Origin: an uncultured virus (IMG/VR IMGVR_UViG_3300027798_000023) | Lineage: Duplodnaviria > Heunggongvirae > Uroviricota > Caudoviricetes | Direction: 5' to 3' (one strand) | IMG/VR virus record: IMGVR_UViG_3300027798_000023 | DNA: 36,925 nucleotides | Shown: positions 12,154-34,864 of the stretch, one piece after another | Numbering within the stretch: position 1 is the first letter of the stretch | How the letters are laid out: every line of letters starts with the position of its first letter | Translations under genes and position numbers: made by a program | Notes under the pieces: model-generated | Database searches by the model: none | Told to the model about the DNA's origin: nothing | What the model saw: only the letters and a program-made list of their open reading frames with translations

Positions 12154-13044
12154 ATGGCAAACTCCACCACCGGCATCCAAGATGACATCATCGCCCGTAG
12201 CGTCCTTCAAGGATTTACTGCTGCGATTGCACCAATGGCCGCCCTTAACACCCTGTTCTCTGACGCAGCCGCTAACCGTGGCGATCGCGTTTCCGTTCCA
12301 CGTCTCGCATCCTCACTTGATGCTGCCGCAGACAAAGCTGTAGGCTCGGCTTACACCATCCAAGACATCGATTCCGATGCCGTTGAGATCGTTCTCAACA
12401 AGCACAAGTATGTTTCGATGGGTAACGACGATATCGAAGTTGCCAACAGTTCGGCACTTGTTCTTGAGCGTTACGGCGTTCGTAAAGGTAACCTACTCGC
12501 CAAAACCGTAGCACAAGACGTGTTCAGCGAAATCACCTTGGCTAACTTCGGTGCAGCCGCATTCACCGGCGCAGCATCTACCTTCGATGAAGATGATGTA
12601 GCTGACGTAGCAGATGTTTGCGACGACGACAATATGCCCGAAGACCGCTACCTGGTTCTCAGCAACGCTTACATCACCGCTCTTCGCAAATCTGGAGCAA
12701 TCAAAGACACCTCTGGCTACGGATACAACGCCATCCAAACTGGCAATATCCCAATGCTTCACGGATTCAAAATCATCCCATCGAACATCATCCCAGCAAA
12801 CGGTGAAAACCTTGTTGGATTCGCAACCGATGGATCCGGCATCGCTGCTGCATTCCGCTATCTTGCTCCACTTGGTGGCAACAAGTATGACCGTGCTGAA
12901 GCTATCGTTGGCGAAGGTGGTATCACCCTCGGACTCCGCAGCTGGTATTCCGAAGACTTCGGTAACTACCGTTCCGTCATGGAGTGTGTCTATGGTTACG
13001 AGACTGGCATCGCAGCCGGAATCAAACGCCTTGTCTCCGCTTAA
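12154..13044 (+). CDS. Major capsid protein (HK97 fold inferred)
   Basis: 296 aa; GDRVSVP, MPEDRYLV, G.IPMLHGFKI..SN and VYG motifs; biased codon use; downstream hairpin. Confidence 0.85.
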   Translation: MANSTTGIQDDIIARSVLQGFTAAIAPMAALNTLFSDAAANRGDRVSVPRLASSLDAAADKAVGSAYTIQDIDSDAVEIVLNKHKYVSMGNDDIEVANSSALVLERYGVRKGNLLAKTVAQDVFSEITLANFGAAAFTGAASTFDEDDVADVADVCDDDNMPEDRYLVLSNAYITALRKSGAIKDTSGYGYNAIQTGNIPMLHGFKIIPSNIIPANGENLVGFATDGSGIAAAFRYLAPLGGNKYDRAEAIVGEGGITLGLRSWYSEDFGNYRSVMECVYGYETGIAAGIKRLVSA

Positions 13045-13053
13045 TTCTTGAAC

Positions 13054-26408: not shown

Positions 26409-26618
26409 ATGAACTACCAACACATACTAGAACAAGACAAGAACGAGCGGAAACATCTTCGCTTTGTTAAAGCAATCCACGATCAAGATGGTCACACTTA
26501 TCCTGCTTTATCCTTGCCGGAAAATTGGGAGAATGTCCGCCATGTTGTCGGCAATCTTTACTTTGCTTGGGATGAAGATCCTCTGCTTGGTCAGATTTAC
26601 CTTGCCGAGTATGATTGA
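26409..26618 (+). CDS. Hypothetical protein
   Basis: 69 aa ORF in a tightly spaced run. Confidence 0.6.
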   Translation: MNYQHILEQDKNERKHLRFVKAIHDQDGHTYPALSLPENWENVRHVVGNLYFAWDEDPLLGQIYLAEYD

Positions 26619-26655: not shown

Positions 26656-27861
26656 ATGTGGATACTACCAAAATCAATCATATCAGTTTATGTGCCGGAT
26701 ACGGCGGCATTGATCTCGGACTTAGCCGAGCAATCCCAAATCTGCGAACAATCGCTTTTAGCGAGATCGAAGCCTTCGCTTGCGCGAACTTGGTCGCAAA
26801 AATGGAAGCGGGACTCTTGGACGCAGCTCCTATCTGGACGAATCTTAAAACCTTCCCATGGTCAGAGTTTTGTGACAAAGTGGACATCCTCTCTGGAGGT
26901 TATCCCTGTCAACCATTCTCCGCAGCAGGAAAGCGACTTGGAAAAGAAGACCCAAGACACCTTTGGCCGTGGATCGCAGATGGAATTAGAATTATGCGCC
27001 CCAGAATCTGCTTCTTTGAAAATGTCGAAGGACACATCAGCCTTGGACTCAGAGAAGTCATCAGCGAACTGGAAAGCCTTGGTTATCAAACGACGTGGGG
27101 AATATTCTCAGCGCGTGAAGTCGGCGCACCTCACCAACGTAAGCGAGTGTTCATCTTGGCCCACCGCAAAAGCGAGGGATTGGAAGGATACGATGGGTTG
27201 CTCGCTAGATGCTACGAATCCAGACGGGACTCATCGGAACAGGAGGGACAGGCTGGTTGGAGCAATAGTTGCGGAAATGCATGGCCAAGCCGCCCCGGTC
27301 AACCCCAGCACGGATGGGAGCCGCCTAGAGTCGTGGGCAACTCCAAGCACAATGGATCACATCAATGTAGTGAGGAAACCAGAGGATCGATCATCCGCAG
27401 CGAACAAAGGGGGATGCAAGAATCTGAGGGAGGAAGTTCATCAATGGGCGACACCAAACACGATGGATCACTTGGACTGCCGGAGTGCAGAGGGAGTCAT
27501 CAAGATTGCAACAGGAGCGAGGAAGGGACGATCAATGCCATCGAATCTGAGGGAGCAGGTAGATCCGCAGACTGTGGATATTTACCAGAAAACCAAGGAG
27601 GAGTCATGGGCAACTCCACAGACGAGAGATCATCGGAGCGGAGATACAGAGAGATTCCAGAATCCAGATCGAAGCAAAAACCTAAACGATCAGATGCCAG
27701 TCCCGAACGGCAAACTAAACCCTCGCTGGGTGGAGACGCTGATGGGGCTACCGATCGGATGGGTCATGCCGAGCTGTTCATTACCTCTGACAATCGCACC
27801 GACGAACTGCGACTGCTTGGCAACGGAGTTGTCCCTGCAACAGCAACCAGAGCTTTTATAG
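26656..27861 (+). CDS. Overlapping-frame MTase partner (beta-like) with TRD-like repeats and motif IX
   Basis: 401 codons with no stop; four W[P/A]T[A/P]xxxD repeats; LNPRWVETLMGLPIGW resembles motif IX; true start uncertain. Confidence 0.75.
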   Translation: MWILPKSIISVYVPDTAALISDLAEQSQICEQSLLARSKPSLARTWSQKWKRDSWTQLLSGRILKPSHGQSFVTKWTSSLEVIPVNHSPQQESDLEKKTQDTFGRGSQMELELCAPESASLKMSKDTSALDSEKSSANWKALVIKRRGEYSQRVKSAHLTNVSECSSWPTAKARDWKDTMGCSLDATNPDGTHRNRRDRLVGAIVAEMHGQAAPVNPSTDGSRLESWATPSTMDHINVVRKPEDRSSAANKGGCKNLREEVHQWATPNTMDHLDCRSAEGVIKIATGARKGRSMPSNLREQVDPQTVDIYQKTKEESWATPQTRDHRSGDTERFQNPDRSKNLNDQMPVPNGKLNPRWVETLMGLPIGWVMPSCSLPLTIAPTNCDCLATELSLQQQPELL

Positions 27862-27890
27862 TCCTTATCAATCAACTACTAAACCAATAA
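26658..27890 (+). CDS. C5 cytosine DNA methyltransferase, catalytic (alpha) polypeptide lacking motif IX
   Basis: Motif I SLCAGYGG, IV GGYPCQPFS, VI FFENV, VIII PHQRKRVF, X LGNGVVP. Confidence 0.92.
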   Translation: MDTTKINHISLCAGYGGIDLGLSRAIPNLRTIAFSEIEAFACANLVAKMEAGLLDAAPIWTNLKTFPWSEFCDKVDILSGGYPCQPFSAAGKRLGKEDPRHLWPWIADGIRIMRPRICFFENVEGHISLGLREVISELESLGYQTTWGIFSAREVGAPHQRKRVFILAHRKSEGLEGYDGLLARCYESRRDSSEQEGQAGWSNSCGNAWPSRPGQPQHGWEPPRVVGNSKHNGSHQCSEETRGSIIRSEQRGMQESEGGSSSMGDTKHDGSLGLPECRGSHQDCNRSEEGTINAIESEGAGRSADCGYLPENQGGVMGNSTDERSSERRYREIPESRSKQKPKRSDASPERQTKPSLGGDADGATDRMGHAELFITSDNRTDELRLLGNGVVPATATRAFIVLINQLLNQ

Positions 27891-32082: not shown

Positions 32083-32423
32083 AAGAATCAGAAATCCAAA
32101 ACCAAATTAGAATCGCTTGCAACACGGGTGACATTAGGCTCTGGAGAAATAATGTTGGAGTGGCAAAAACCAAACACGGCGTTATTAGATTTGGTATACC
32201 AGGCGAAGGCGGAAGTGATCTAATCGGATTCAAAACCATAACAATCACAGCCGATCATATTGGAAAACAAATCGCAGTTTTTGCTGCTGTCGAATGCAAA
32301 GCACCCAAAGGCAAGCCCACTACAGAACAAACAAATTTTATCGAATTTATCCGCAATTCGGGCGGTTTAGCTGGAATAGCAAGATCAACCGAAGATGCAA
32401 AATCAATACTGAACGAATTATGA
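32079..32423 (+). CDS. VRR-NUC nuclease
   Basis: ESEIQ, RNNVG, GSDLIG, ECK...GK.T.EQ..F motifs. Confidence 0.9.
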   Translation: MKESEIQNQIRIACNTGDIRLWRNNVGVAKTKHGVIRFGIPGEGGSDLIGFKTITITADHIGKQIAVFAAVECKAPKGKPTTEQTNFIEFIRNSGGLAGIARSTEDAKSILNEL

Positions 32424-34864
32424 GAATAGACAAAACGAAACTAAGAAACATCAAAGAATCCGCATCAAGAATTACCGCTCAATGTCCTGCCTGCGCTGAA
32501 TGCGGAGACGACAACAACGGAGATCACCTTTTTATCTCCCCAGCAACGCAGAAATTTGGCTGCGTTTTATACCAAGGTATCGATGGAGCCGATCATCGCA
32601 GGCGCATCTTCGATCTGGTCGGGATTGTCGATGACGCACCAAAACAGAAACAAACTTACACCGCACTCCCAGCAGCTCCACCGAATGCACCCAAACCGAG
32701 CTTAAACCATTACAAGCACGGCAATCCTGTGGCACATTGGACTTACCATACGATTGATGGAGCGATCGCTGGTATCGTTTCTCGTTATGATATCACGAAC
32801 GGCAAGAAAGAAACCCTGCCGATGACATGGTGCAAGAACCAGAACGGAGAAACATCTTGGCAATTTAAGGCGATGCCAGATCCAAGACCACTTTACGGGT
32901 TACCGTTCCAATCGGAACAGATCGTTTTGGTCGAGGGTGAGAAAACCGCCGAAGCAGTTCGGATGGCAGGTCACGAAGCTACCACATGGTCGGGCGGATG
33001 TGCTGCGATCCATAAGACCGATTTCACTACCTTAACCGGCAAGCACGTCACTCTCTGGCCCGACAACGATGAGCCTGGACAACGTGCCATGAAATCAATC
33101 GCGGCAATCATCAAACCATACGCAGCATCTATTTCGATTGTTTCGATTCCTCACGGTCTGCCAAGCGGATGGGATGCAGCAGATACCACGGCCGATCACA
33201 TTACTCAGCTTGTCGAGGGCGCGACTCAACCCAATCAAGCCGAAAACAAACAGGATTGCTTTGAGTCATCCCAAACGCCAACGGATCGGATCGGATCGAT
33301 GCCGTTTCGATTCCTCGGCATGGATGATGGGATTATGCGCTATATGCCGGACAACGGGCAGCACATCGTCAGCCTAACGCCTGCGTCACATACCAAACTC
33401 AACCTTATCCAACTCGCTCCGCTCCAAGACTGGGAATCAACATTCCCGTCAAAAAACGGATGTGACTGGGACGCAGCATCTAACAGCCTAATCCAATTCT
33501 CACAATCCCTGCCCAAATTCGACCCACGGGCAATTCGCGGTCGAGGTTGCTGGATCGATGGCGAGGATGTAGTCTACCATGCTGGTAACAAACTTGCAGT
33601 AAACGGCTCCATCCAATCGATTCCGTCTTACCTGTCACCGAGCATGGCGATTTACGAATCCGGCTTGCAGATTGCGATCGATACCGAGGACGCTGCAACC
33701 AATGCCCATGCAGCCAAGATTATCGAGCTTTGTGACTCTCTGACATGGGATCAACCGCTTTACGGCAAACTCCTTGCCGGGTGGATGGCATTATCTCCAA
33801 TCTGCGGAGCTTTGAACTGGCGACCACATATCTGGATCACGGGATCGGCTGGATCCGGCAAGACTTGGATTATGGGCAATGTCGTCAATCCGCTTGCAGG
33901 TAGATCGACCGTTTTCGTGCAGGGTAACACTTCCGAGGCTGGAATACGTGGTCAGCTTGGATGCGATGCTCTTCCTGTCTTATTCGATGAGGCCGAGGCT
34001 GAGAACCAGAGATCGATACCGCGAATGGAAGGCGTGATGGAACTAGCCAGACAGGCAAGCTCCGAATCGGGCGCAGGAATCGTCAAAGGCACTCAAAACG
34101 GTGGCAGCATCACTTACATGGTCAGATCAATGTTCTGCTTCTCATCAATCGGGGTCGCAGCTGTTAAGAAAGCCGATACAAGCCGGATATCCGTATTGTC
34201 GTTGAGAAAGTCGGATTCGCCATCACAATTTGAGAAAGTGAAGGAGATTTGGAGGCAAACCACAGCATCGCCCGTGTATTGCGCCAGGATACGTGCCAGA
34301 TCGATCCGCAACGCAATCACGACCCGACACAACGCAGATGTGTTCTCGGCTGCTGCTGTGGCGTTTACGGGCGACAAACGCTCTGCTGACCAGATCGGGA
34401 CTCTACTGGCTGGGGCATACTCGCTTACATCGACTAAAAAGATCACGGCCGAATCTGCCACAGCTTGGCTATCAAAACAGGATTGGTCTGGATTCAAGGT
34501 TGACTCAATTGACTCCGACGAGAACCAATGCTGGTCGCATTTACTTAGCTCACCGGTCATCATTCAGCGTGAAAAATCCACCGAAACGATCTCAATCGAC
34601 GAGGCTGTTTCTTGCTATTATAATTCCAAAAACCAAGACTATGAGGCAGCTTTACGTCGAATCGGCATCAAAATTACCGAAAACGGGCTGATAATTGCCA
34701 ATAATCACCAAGGTCTGGAGCGGATTTTTCGGGATACGGCATGGTCTGGATCCAAATGGAGGGGGCAATTACTCAGAATCGTTGGATCAGAATCACCTAA
34801 AAACCCGGTCAAATTTGGTCAAAACGTATTGCAAAGGGCTGTTTTTGTTCCGTTTTTGGCTTAA
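32420..34864 (+). CDS. Primase-helicase (Zn finger + TOPRIM + P-loop ATPase)
   Basis: CPAC...H...C, RPLYG, VEGEKTA, WPDNDEPG, GWDAAD, GSAGSGKT, LFDEAE; ATGA-coupled start at 32420. Confidence 0.9.
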   Translation: MRIDKTKLRNIKESASRITAQCPACAECGDDNNGDHLFISPATQKFGCVLYQGIDGADHRRRIFDLVGIVDDAPKQKQTYTALPAAPPNAPKPSLNHYKHGNPVAHWTYHTIDGAIAGIVSRYDITNGKKETLPMTWCKNQNGETSWQFKAMPDPRPLYGLPFQSEQIVLVEGEKTAEAVRMAGHEATTWSGGCAAIHKTDFTTLTGKHVTLWPDNDEPGQRAMKSIAAIIKPYAASISIVSIPHGLPSGWDAADTTADHITQLVEGATQPNQAENKQDCFESSQTPTDRIGSMPFRFLGMDDGIMRYMPDNGQHIVSLTPASHTKLNLIQLAPLQDWESTFPSKNGCDWDAASNSLIQFSQSLPKFDPRAIRGRGCWIDGEDVVYHAGNKLAVNGSIQSIPSYLSPSMAIYESGLQIAIDTEDAATNAHAAKIIELCDSLTWDQPLYGKLLAGWMALSPICGALNWRPHIWITGSAGSGKTWIMGNVVNPLAGRSTVFVQGNTSEAGIRGQLGCDALPVLFDEAEAENQRSIPRMEGVMELARQASSESGAGIVKGTQNGGSITYMVRSMFCFSSIGVAAVKKADTSRISVLSLRKSDSPSQFEKVKEIWRQTTASPVYCARIRARSIRNAITTRHNADVFSAAAVAFTGDKRSADQIGTLLAGAYSLTSTKKITAESATAWLSKQDWSGFKVDSIDSDENQCWSHLLSSPVIIQREKSTETISIDEAVSCYYNSKNQDYEAALRRIGIKITENGLIIANNHQGLERIFRDTAWSGSKWRGQLLRIVGSESPKNPVKFGQNVLQRAVFVPFLA

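Follow-up and report, generated by a model that had tools for sequence, protein, structure and literature searches.

A gene on the plus strand of the window, as we call the whole 36,925-nt stretch of DNA from an uncultured tailed phage that was analysed here, appears to encode a C5 DNA methyltransferase in two polypeptides, which would be read in different frames from a shared start and which, with a probability that we put at about 0.74, form a heterodimer like that of M.EcoHK31I. The initial annotation had proposed an enzyme of this kind, divided over two co-extensive frames of which the second supplies motif IX, and the split of the motifs, the open frames, and the codon signatures all favour this proposal.

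The two frames open within the pentanucleotide ATGTG (26656-26660), in which the ATG begins the alternative frame (ALT) and the overlapping GTG, 2 nt further on, begins the main frame (MAIN). MAIN, the proposed alpha, runs from 26658 to 27890 (GTG start, 410 codons) and contains motifs I-VIII, a conserved hinge block, a low-complexity tether, and motif X; ALT, the proposed beta, runs on the same strand from 26656 to 27861 (ATG start, 401 aa), in the +1 frame relative to MAIN, and contains an arm at the N-terminus, then four W-x-T-P modules, and after these motif IX. All of ALT but its first 2 nt is contained in the MAIN coordinates. According to the ORF listing of the window, neither frame has an internal stop, in agreement with the earlier claim that ATG 26656 and GTG 26658 open two same-strand frames that are stop-free for 1.2 kb. 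The motif contents ascribed to these frames also stood, but the starts had to be exchanged between them: the motif-bearing frame is that of GTG 26658 and its companion that of ATG 26656. The stop-free +1 run is 400 codons long in this gene versus a longest run of 41-149 codons in the 14 other long plus-strand ORFs of the window, whose +1 frames contain 4-44 stops each. A clear Shine-Dalgarno sequence was not found upstream of ATGTG in the window sequence; of the two start codons, GTG is the weaker. An identical gene is carried by the nearest virus record (G001).

MAIN has motifs I (LCAGYGG, an AdoMet loop of the FxGxG type, aa 11-17, nt 26688-26708), IV (GYPCQPFS, with the PCQ cysteine, aa 81-88, nt 26898-26921), VI (FENVEG, containing ENV, aa 120-125, nt 27015-27032), and VIII (HQRKRVF, of the form QxRxR, aa 159-165, nt 27132-27152) in one chain, as in C5 DNA methyltransferases, and motif X, RTDELRLLGNGVVP (with LLGNGVVP; aa 380-393, nt 27795-27836), near its end; the columns of all five are invariant in the alignment. 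Motifs IX and X do not, however, both accompany motifs I-VIII in one chain, for X is in MAIN and the sole motif IX-like sequence is in ALT. Pfam PF00145 matches MAIN only (E 8.2e-36), and MAIN is taken to lack motif IX because this match, from aa 7 to 185, covers profile positions 2-169 of 324 and ends there. Against PHROGs, MAIN matches phrog_363 over aa 2-400 (E 9.6e-56). The AF2 model of MAIN is confident at aa 1-175 and in a helix at 393-409, most of 188-388 having a pLDDT below 50 and no secondary structure, and its top Foldseek matches are M.HaeIII and M.HhaI (E about 2e-12). Residues 229-369 are of low complexity (S 15.6%, G 14.2%, E 11.3%, R 9.9%). In the middle of the gene stands the conserved block WPSRPGQPQHGWEPPRVV (aa 209-226, nt 27282-27335), which lies within the predicted interface and of which 12 of the 18 columns are invariant and the others conserved or nearly so among 89 sequences. 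The motifs, the composition, and the Pfam match thus bear out what had been noticed of this frame, namely motifs I-VIII and X, a low-complexity middle, and no motif IX.

The ALT chain is of a different kind. Its first 165 residues are 16.4% Ser and begin with MWI[LIV]P[KR], which is conserved in the subfamily where MAIN has no known motif; they include a block, CEQSLLARSKPSLARTWSQKWKRDSWTQLLSGRILKPS... (aa 30-81, nt 26743-26898), that is conserved in the ALT frame, has near-invariant ALT residues, overlaps MAIN motifs II-III, and is a predicted contact of alpha. The module array follows (27157-27711), its four modules beginning at W168 (27157), W227 (27334), W264 (27445), and W318 (27607) and sharing the pattern W-[PA]-T; read in MAIN, it gives the Ser/Gly/Glu/Arg-rich tether. 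It is in the ALT frame that the variable modules are conserved; in MAIN, the same bases are a low-complexity, low-pLDDT stretch plus the one conserved block at aa 209-226. Among close relatives, whole modules are gained or lost at the W-x-T-P boundaries. Motif IX, KLNPRWVETLMGLPIGW (aa 353-369, nt 27712-27762), contains LNPRWVETLMGLPIGW (aa 354-369, nt 27715-27762) and is invariant or nearly so in 79 sequences. The composition of ALT, its four modules, and these coordinates match the earlier description of a Ser-rich frame with repeats and a motif IX-like sequence at 27715-27762. No Pfam family was found for ALT, even at E up to 1. Against PHROGs, it matches phrog_1008, "DNA methyltransferase", over aa 72-370 (E 7.5e-18). 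It has 1947 homologues, with no Pfam domain in any of the 120 matches listed; the beta part alone forms 2916 clusters at 50% identity, and none of the 65 long beta-like cluster representatives has a whole in-frame PF00145 domain. The AF2 model of ALT alone is poor (mean pLDDT 55.6), its sole confident part being a helix at 133-156. In two relatives (L052 and L053), ALT runs beyond the MAIN stop and adds W-P-T modules, which indicates that ALT is protein-coding where no overlap exists.

Both frames are open end to end in 39 of 44 unique related genes, where the frame ends are at most 68 nt apart and the third frame is closed within about 110 nt; the five departures from the layout are L040, L046, L048, L052, and L053. 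Breaks of the second frame in the repeat and motif IX region, which the initial annotation had itself named as a counterargument, are absent: between motif VIII and the end of the gene, ALT is uninterrupted in 44/44. These 44 genes had been retrieved with ALT peptides. A second set was retrieved with the catalytic motifs of MAIN only, and, of its 80 loci, 71 were new, unique, and complete; the +1 frame is stop-free across the whole MAIN ORF in 65 of these 71, with six departures, so ascertainment bias from the ALT-peptide retrieval was rejected. Codon usage was controlled by simulation, in which each of the 44 loci was recoded synonymously 1000 times with one of the two proteins fixed. With the MAIN protein fixed, some 198 ALT stops were expected in the N-terminal region and, with the ALT protein fixed, some 419 MAIN stops in the middle, versus 0 observed in either case; codon-usage bias was therefore rejected as the cause of the open frames, and the double open frame is not due to chance. 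The layout was found in more than 100 viral contigs, in the complete genomes of cultured Paenibacillus phages, and in the complete genome of the cultured phage C75C1 (480 and 459 codons), locus counts being no counts of independent events, as related sequences share ancestry. A tblastn search with ALT against cultured-phage records gave two, C75C1 and RcCWillis, and the subfamily of the window gene is nearly absent from cultured phages; ALT of the Paenibacillus type is in 75 such records.

Each frame keeps a start of its own next to that of the other in all 44 loci, directly before the first conserved residue, in five different arrangements. An ATG/GTG pair 2 nt apart is found in 34 of the 44 unique relatives and ATGACATGG (ATG/ATG, 5 nt apart) in seven, and the remaining arrangements are found at one locus each: starts 8 nt apart, a MAIN ATG 7 nt upstream, and GTGTG. 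In 31/44 loci, an upstream ORF ends at -10 to +3 nt of the ALT ATG. From their conservation, we infer that both frames are translated. Of the decoding routes that had been envisaged for them, co-initiation is favoured by these adjacent starts, kept through five arrangements, and a frameshift with a return is disfavoured by the open frames, by the MAIN-phase signature of WPSRPGQPQHGWEPPRVV, and by the lack of an X_XXY_YYZ heptamer after motif IX in 37 loci.

The codon phase of the variation among relatives reveals which frame is constrained in which segment. The WPSRPGQPQHGWEPPRVV block has a MAIN-phase signature, 0.121/0.083/0.354 and 0.106/0.057/0.421 (39/44 loci), and the motif IX block an ALT-phase signature, 0.115/0.04/0.436 and 0.122/0.047/0.537 (40/44 loci), its variation falling at ALT third positions. 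Both in the WPSRPG block and in the region of motif X, the variation is at MAIN third positions; starting 24 codons past the beginning of motif IX, its peak is at the second ALT phase, equivalent to the third of MAIN. At MAIN codons of about 20-75, third-position diversity is 0.09-0.16 (36 loci) and not above that of first positions; in 14 loci, the values for codons 20-75 are 0.114 at third and 0.118 at first positions, and a neighbouring gene of the same 14 genomes has a third-position diversity of 0.584. This shows that selection switches between the frames along the gene, including a MAIN block in mid-gene and an ALT block over the catalytic domain; judged by the codon phases, purifying selection acts separately on ALT aa 30-81. 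Recent gene exchange among phages could partly add to the low third-position diversity, but the phase ratios within the gene argue against this.

Prediction of the complex, one of the checks suggested at the outset, supports the pairing of the chains: MAIN and ALT together scored 0.84 (0.84, 0.82, and 0.84 in the separate runs) versus 0.01 for the best of three controls. The score mark is reached by 116 of 157 solved complexes versus 2 of 215 mismatched pairs, a calibration that is rough here, own alignments having been used. At least 54% of the contacts are common to the runs, the partner pLDDT being at least 60; the chains of the complex model themselves reach a pLDDT of 61-65. The predicted interface joins beta 352-383 to alpha 370-394 and beta 1-8 to alpha 42-62, the latter with the lowest expected errors of the model, and ALT motif IX is predicted to pack on alpha 370-394. 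The model may have carried the IX-X packing over from solved single-chain C5 methyltransferases, and this packing is a sign of likeness rather than of binding. We infer that the chains bind each other and that the modules read the DNA target.

The two-chain enzyme would then work as follows. On one mRNA, ribosomes would initiate either at ATG 26656, making beta (401 aa), or at GTG 26658, making alpha (410 aa). Alpha would comprise the AdoMet-binding and catalytic domain (motifs I-VIII), the WPSRPGQPQHGWEPPRVV block, a disordered tether, which would be the other reading of the beta modules, and the motif X helix; beta would comprise the N-terminal arm, the four W-x-T-P modules, which probably recognize the target, and motif IX. 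The chains would join as one C5 DNA methyltransferase with motif IX of beta against motif X of alpha, as in the heterodimer of M.EcoHK31I.

Another possibility is a single canonical chain, for which translation would start in MAIN, shift by +1 into ALT after motif VIII, and shift back by -1 before motif X. The resulting order (I-VIII, modules, IX, X) would be canonical, the first W-P-T module (27157) adjoins motif VIII (27132-27152), and the end of ALT motif IX at 27762 is about 11 codons from the MAIN motif X block at 27795, a normal spacing as in M.HhaI. This explanation is nevertheless quite improbable: it does not explain why ALT is open and conserved through the 165 codons that precede the shift or why MAIN is open through the roughly 200 codons from one shift to the other, with 0 stops against the 198 and 419 expected; the invariant MAIN block WPSRPGQPQHGWEPPRVV, with its MAIN-frame signature, falls within the part for which ALT would be decoded; and ALT retains its ATG and the conserved MWI[LIV]P[KR] N-terminus. 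Moreover, a heptamer of the X_XXY_YYZ type occurs within 40 codons after motif IX in 0/37 loci, a pattern that does not cover +1 sites, which have no general consensus. Programmed frameshifting usually shows a conserved slippery site and a zero frame that closes soon after the shift; here, both frames are open throughout. We know of no precedent for two efficient programmed shifts in one gene. A start of beta at an internal ALT codon (e.g., M108, M123, or M180), with the 5' part of ALT open for other reasons, is unlikely too. It would suit the ALT ORF of Paenibacillus phage Bloom, which begins 202 nt past the annotated MAIN start, and several database homologues that begin just before the first module (e.g., P0021, 224 aa), and it has a parallel in M.EcoHK31I, where, in the passages of PMC2836561 on this subunit, beta does not need its first 42-67 residues and can start at internal Met codons. 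It is opposed by the conservation of the ALT ATG and of MWI[LIV]P[KR] where MAIN has no known motif, by the separate purifying selection on ALT aa 30-81, by the 0 upstream ALT stops in 44 loci against 198 expected, and by the model of the complex, which puts beta 1-8 on alpha 42-62.

It might also be that alpha alone is the methyltransferase and that ALT acts in another capacity: it might regulate, switch specificity, or be an overprinted protein with no relation to the enzyme. MAIN has all motifs except IX, its conserved block, located after VIII and before X, could act as a minimal recognition loop, and short relatives such as L054 (286 aa) resemble compact enzymes. However, the most conserved motif IX-like sequence of the gene is in ALT and at the canonical place, ALT-type proteins belong to a PHROGs family named "DNA methyltransferase", and M.EcoHK31I alpha without beta gave no methylation after the internal beta starts had been removed, in the experiments described in part of PMC2836561; we consider this explanation very improbable. 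That assembly indels or codon bias produced a spurious second open frame is scarcely credible: the source is an uncultured virus record and extra frame changes are present in a few relatives (L040; L091, L095, L099, L127, and L134), but more than 100 viral contigs, independent of one another, share the layout, as do the complete genomes of C75C1 and the cultured Paenibacillus phages, and codon usage was controlled by the synonymous recoding.

A bolder version of the two-chain reading, which we put forward tentatively and hold to be more doubtful than the heterodimer itself, is that the overlap is functional over its whole length: co-initiation would be deliberate and set the ratio and the place of synthesis of the chains, the beta arm would clamp the motif II-III surface of alpha, for which the same bases code, and the exchangeable W-x-T-P cassettes would set specificity and, in their second reading, provide the tether of alpha. 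If so, the swap of a single cassette would retarget the enzyme with neither chain broken, the gene would be among the longest fully dual-coding genes of DNA viruses, and the layout would be the usual, overlooked one of a large family of phage methyltransferases. If both chains are made, half of the enzyme is missed or misnamed by gene callers and annotators, the prediction of methylation specificity in phages should include the second frame, and the gene would offer a compact natural model for two interacting proteins written in the same DNA. The modular array of beta may supply new target specificities.

The products of both frames are already known as phage protein families, MAIN being phrog_363 and ALT phrog_1008. 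PHROGs names both "DNA methyltransferase" but keeps them as separate families, and its output is silent on the two being readings of one DNA. A literature search found no published description of the two-frame layout in phages; the part of a Paenibacillus phage genomics paper that lists two cytosine methyltransferase gene products does not comment on their nesting. Overlapping genes on the same strand are familiar from small viruses, such as phiX174 A/B and D/E and tymovirus replicase/p69, and the likeness to them, as outlined in the relevant part of PMC8227390, is that two proteins are written in one stretch of DNA in different frames. According to the same part of PMC8227390, the overprinted protein there is unrelated in function to its partner, whereas the two readings in the window appear to be halves of one enzyme. 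Moreover, compared with the overlaps of small viruses, that of the window takes in an entire gene, and the virus is a tailed phage with double-stranded DNA.

The closest parallels are the natural two-chain C5 methyltransferases, of which the portion of PMC3404938 on such enzymes names two, M.AquI and M.EcoHK31I. The same portion gives M.AquI of Agmenellum quadruplicatum (CYCGRG; Karreman and de Waard 1990) as a two-subunit C5 methyltransferase (PMC3404938), and the window gene, whose two-chain state is suggested by its sequence, would resemble it as a natural two-polypeptide enzyme divided in the variable region. In M.AquI as thus described, IX and X are together in the small subunit and the two genes do not cover the same stretch, whereas X is on alpha in the window, so the division is not of the M.AquI type. 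Motifs IX and X are together in the second frame of a relative (L048) and of mycobacteriophage Maminiaina (gp84/gp83), and therefore both layouts occur in the wider group.

Lee, Kam and Shaw reportedly described M.EcoHK31I (E. coli HK31, YGGCCR) in 1995 as an alpha/beta C5 methyltransferase. In the passages of PMC2836561 and PMC3404938 that concern it, alpha contains motifs I-VIII, X, and the target-recognition domain, the whole of beta, with motif IX, is encoded within the alpha gene in a different frame, and activity depends on both chains. Compared by this described layout, the window gene is alike in that MAIN contains I-VIII and X and that motif IX is in a same-strand ALT in another frame. 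It differs in that the beta of M.EcoHK31I, as outlined there, is short and nested inside the alpha gene, whereas the putative beta of the window has 401 aa versus 410 aa for alpha and starts 2 nt earlier; in that the target-recognition domain of M.EcoHK31I is assigned to alpha, whereas the window beta carries the modular W-x-T-P array; and in that the first 165 residues of the window beta, which share their bases with the catalytic domain, show conservation of their own. Encoded in an alternative frame, the beta of M.EcoHK31I has passed for a curiosity; the window gene would push the same principle as far as it can go, the overlap being complete and the start shared, and selection would maintain it across a very large phage gene group.

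The window is a fragment of a tailed-phage genome, with genes for terminase, portal, protease, major head protein, endolysin, exonuclease, helicase and primase. Its methyltransferase gene, an identical copy of which is present in the nearest virus record (G001), consists of two stop-free frames on the plus strand: ALT, the proposed beta chain, starts at an ATG (26656-27861, 401 codons), and MAIN, the proposed alpha chain, starts at a GTG (26658-27890, 410 codons), ALT being +1 to MAIN. The first 170 residues of MAIN hold the C5 DNA methyltransferase motifs I, IV, VI and VIII (PF00145 at aa 7-185, E 8.2e-36, profile positions 2-169 of 324), motif X is at aa 380-393, and the best solved relatives are M.HhaI and M.HaeIII. 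ALT has no Pfam family in a Pfam search; it contains four W-[PA]-T modules; at aa 353-369, the place expected of a motif IX, it has KLNPRWVETLMGLPIGW. The positions that the initial annotation assigned to both frames and to the motifs were correct on re-checking, except that what it called frame A is the GTG frame and not the ATG frame.

Two such open frames are more than chance. The +1 open run in this gene is 400 codons, versus longest runs of 41-149 codons in 14 other long ORFs of the window, the +1 frames of which contain 4-44 stops. Fewest stops among these, 4 in 297 codons, are found in the major head gene (12154-13044), where a 145-codon ATG ORF lies in the +1 frame at 12614-13051; the primase gene (32294-34864) has a 149-codon stop-free +1 run and a 132-aa GTG ORF at 34293-34691. 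A viral-contig search with ALT gave 52 loci which, with the window and Phage C75C1, comprise 49 complete genes, 44 of them unique. In 39 of these 44, the two frames extend from the shared start and end no more than 68 nt apart; the third frame stays open for no more than about 110 nt in the ALT-retrieved loci, and the five incomplete loci reach the contig end with both frames open. Because this set had been obtained via ALT peptides, the retrieval was repeated with the MAIN catalytic motifs only, which yielded 71 new, unique, complete loci. The +1 frame was stop-free across the entire MAIN ORF in 65 of the 71, the exceptions being L058, L060, L061, L077, L116 and L133; in L091, L095, L099, L127 and L134, MAIN closes early and the +1 frame continues. 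In 1000 synonymous recodings per gene over the 44 loci, using the codon usage of flanking ORFs, 198 ALT stops were expected in the N-terminal region with the MAIN protein fixed, and 419 MAIN stops in the middle with the ALT protein fixed; none was observed in either case.

A frame map built from codon-phase diversity among related loci shows where each frame is constrained. Across the block of motif IX, it is the ALT third positions that vary (0.115/0.04/0.436 and 0.122/0.047/0.537 for codon positions 1/2/3; 40 of 44 loci); from 24 codons beyond, with the onset of motif X, variation shifts to ALT phase 2 (MAIN phase 3). The mid-gene MAIN block WPSRPGQPQHGWEPPRVV, in which 12 of 18 columns are invariant across 89 sequences and the others at least nearly conserved, has a MAIN signature (0.121/0.083/0.354 and 0.106/0.057/0.421; 39 of 44 loci). 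MAIN is the better conserved of the two frames over the catalytic domain, yet its third positions vary unusually little there (36 loci; 0.27 overall, 0.09-0.16 for codons 20-75). Across 14 genomes, a common neighbouring gene of 335 codons has phase diversities of 0.438/0.403/0.584, and the MAIN N-terminal region 0.129/0.065/0.195, with 0.118/0.041/0.114 in codons 20-75. Recent gene exchange between phages could be a source of such low diversity and could reduce all three phases together, but it would not bring third positions level with first positions. Since the MAIN third positions are quiet, and in codons 20-75 about equal to the first, ALT aa ~30-81 is, by this sequence criterion, under its own purifying selection.

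Each frame has its own start codon immediately before its first conserved residue in all 44 unique genes, and the ALT N-terminus is MWI[LIV]P[KR] throughout. The arrangement is ATGTG in 34 genes, ATGACATGG, with ATG for both starts, in seven, and GTGTG in one; in one gene the starts are separated by 8 nt, and in another (C75C1) the MAIN ATG is 7 nt upstream. Inspection of the upstream ORFs (L004-L055 and the window) revealed one of at least 40 codons ending -10 to +3 nt from the ALT ATG, in TAATG or ATGA overlaps, at 31 of 44 loci, which suggests translational coupling feeding the double start. The window's own upstream ORF (26409-26618) ends 37 nt before the double start, and no clear Shine-Dalgarno sequence precedes ATGTG in the window.

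Structure prediction for MAIN alone gave a confident fold at aa 1-175, plus a helix at 393-409, and this fold aligns with those of M.HaeIII and M.HhaI across some 172-176 columns; aa 188-388 are mostly below pLDDT 50, with no secondary structure. ALT alone folds poorly (mean pLDDT 55.6). Together, they scored 0.84 at best (runs of 0.84, 0.82 and 0.84) and the best of three controls 0.01. Of 157 solved complexes 116 reach the mark, as do 2 of 215 mismatched pairs; these rates are only approximate here, where own alignments were used. At least 54% of contacts agree between runs, with a partner pLDDT of at least 60. The predicted interface packs beta 352-383 (motif IX) against alpha 370-394 (motif X), which the model may be recalling from solved single-chain enzymes. 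It also sets beta 1-8, 30-81 and 139-157 against alpha 37-74 and 147-162, a contact for which we know of no solved structure. The prediction supports binding of the two chains.

With an E cut-off of 0.001, the beta part (ALT 160-401) matches 2916 cluster representatives. Among the best 150 of these, 65 are at least 335 aa long, and in a scan of those 65 none had a whole in-frame PF00145 domain, and two (P0251 and P0306) had an N-terminal piece of it only. Two other beta-like proteins, P0252 and P0287, have internal HNH_3 endonuclease domains accompanied by NUMOD4 or AP2, an arrangement that would fit in-frame insertion of a homing endonuclease. Another collection holds 1947 ALT homologues, with a Pfam domain in none of the best 120, and at least 7097 MAIN homologues, with PF00145 in all 120 among the matches listed.

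Close relatives gain or lose whole modules, with breakpoints at W-x-T-P. In L052 (2501-3649) and L053 (2501-3697), ALT extends 217-232 nt beyond the MAIN stop and carries further W-P-T-x-x-A-S-D modules there, which places some of the array beyond the two-frame overlap. L046 reads through into the next gene. In L040 (2501-3844), three frames are used: MAIN is open only up to codon 215, +1 continues the MAIN-type WPSRPGQPQ block, and +2 encodes the modules together with motifs IX and X; the extra frame change may be natural, making L040 a three-frame variant, or may result from an assembly indel. Cultured Paenibacillus larvae phages have a comparable nested +1 ORF: it occurs in Paenibacillus phage Bloom (L002, 1408-2538) and in 54 Paenibacillus phage records, which label both ORFs cytosine methyltransferase or call the second one hypothetical. 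These phages would offer a convenient experimental system for the two-frame layout.

Taken as a whole, the sequence comparisons indicate that the gene is real, strongly conserved and fully dual-coding. The simplest account would be that two polypeptides are initiated side by side and assemble into one enzyme. A single ribosome might instead pass from MAIN to ALT after motif VIII and return before motif X, making a canonical single chain. This is very improbable: such decoding does not explain why the 5' part of ALT is open and conserved, why MAIN is open in the middle and keeps a conserved block there, or why there are two start codons, and a slippery heptamer after motif IX was found in none of 37 loci.

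A full-text literature search, with subscription journals mostly outside its coverage, found no description of this layout for phages. Two papers name M.EcoHK31I and M.AquI as natural two-chain C5 methyltransferases (PMC2836561; PMC3404938); in the former enzyme, alpha supplies motifs I-VIII, the TRD and motif X, and beta supplies motif IX from another frame of the alpha gene (PMC2836561). Mycobacteriophage Maminiaina has a split like that of M.AquI. L048 (2501-3874) is an M.AquI-like variant in which ALT encodes motif X (RTDELRLLGNGVVP) downstream of motif IX and MAIN stops before motif X in a Cys-rich tail, CEPCPCCDDVICWKCGGHYADCPC, yet ALT is still open from the shared start. The gene in the window most likely encodes a predicted enzyme that would be a heterodimer like M.EcoHK31I, the two frames overlapping completely from a common start.
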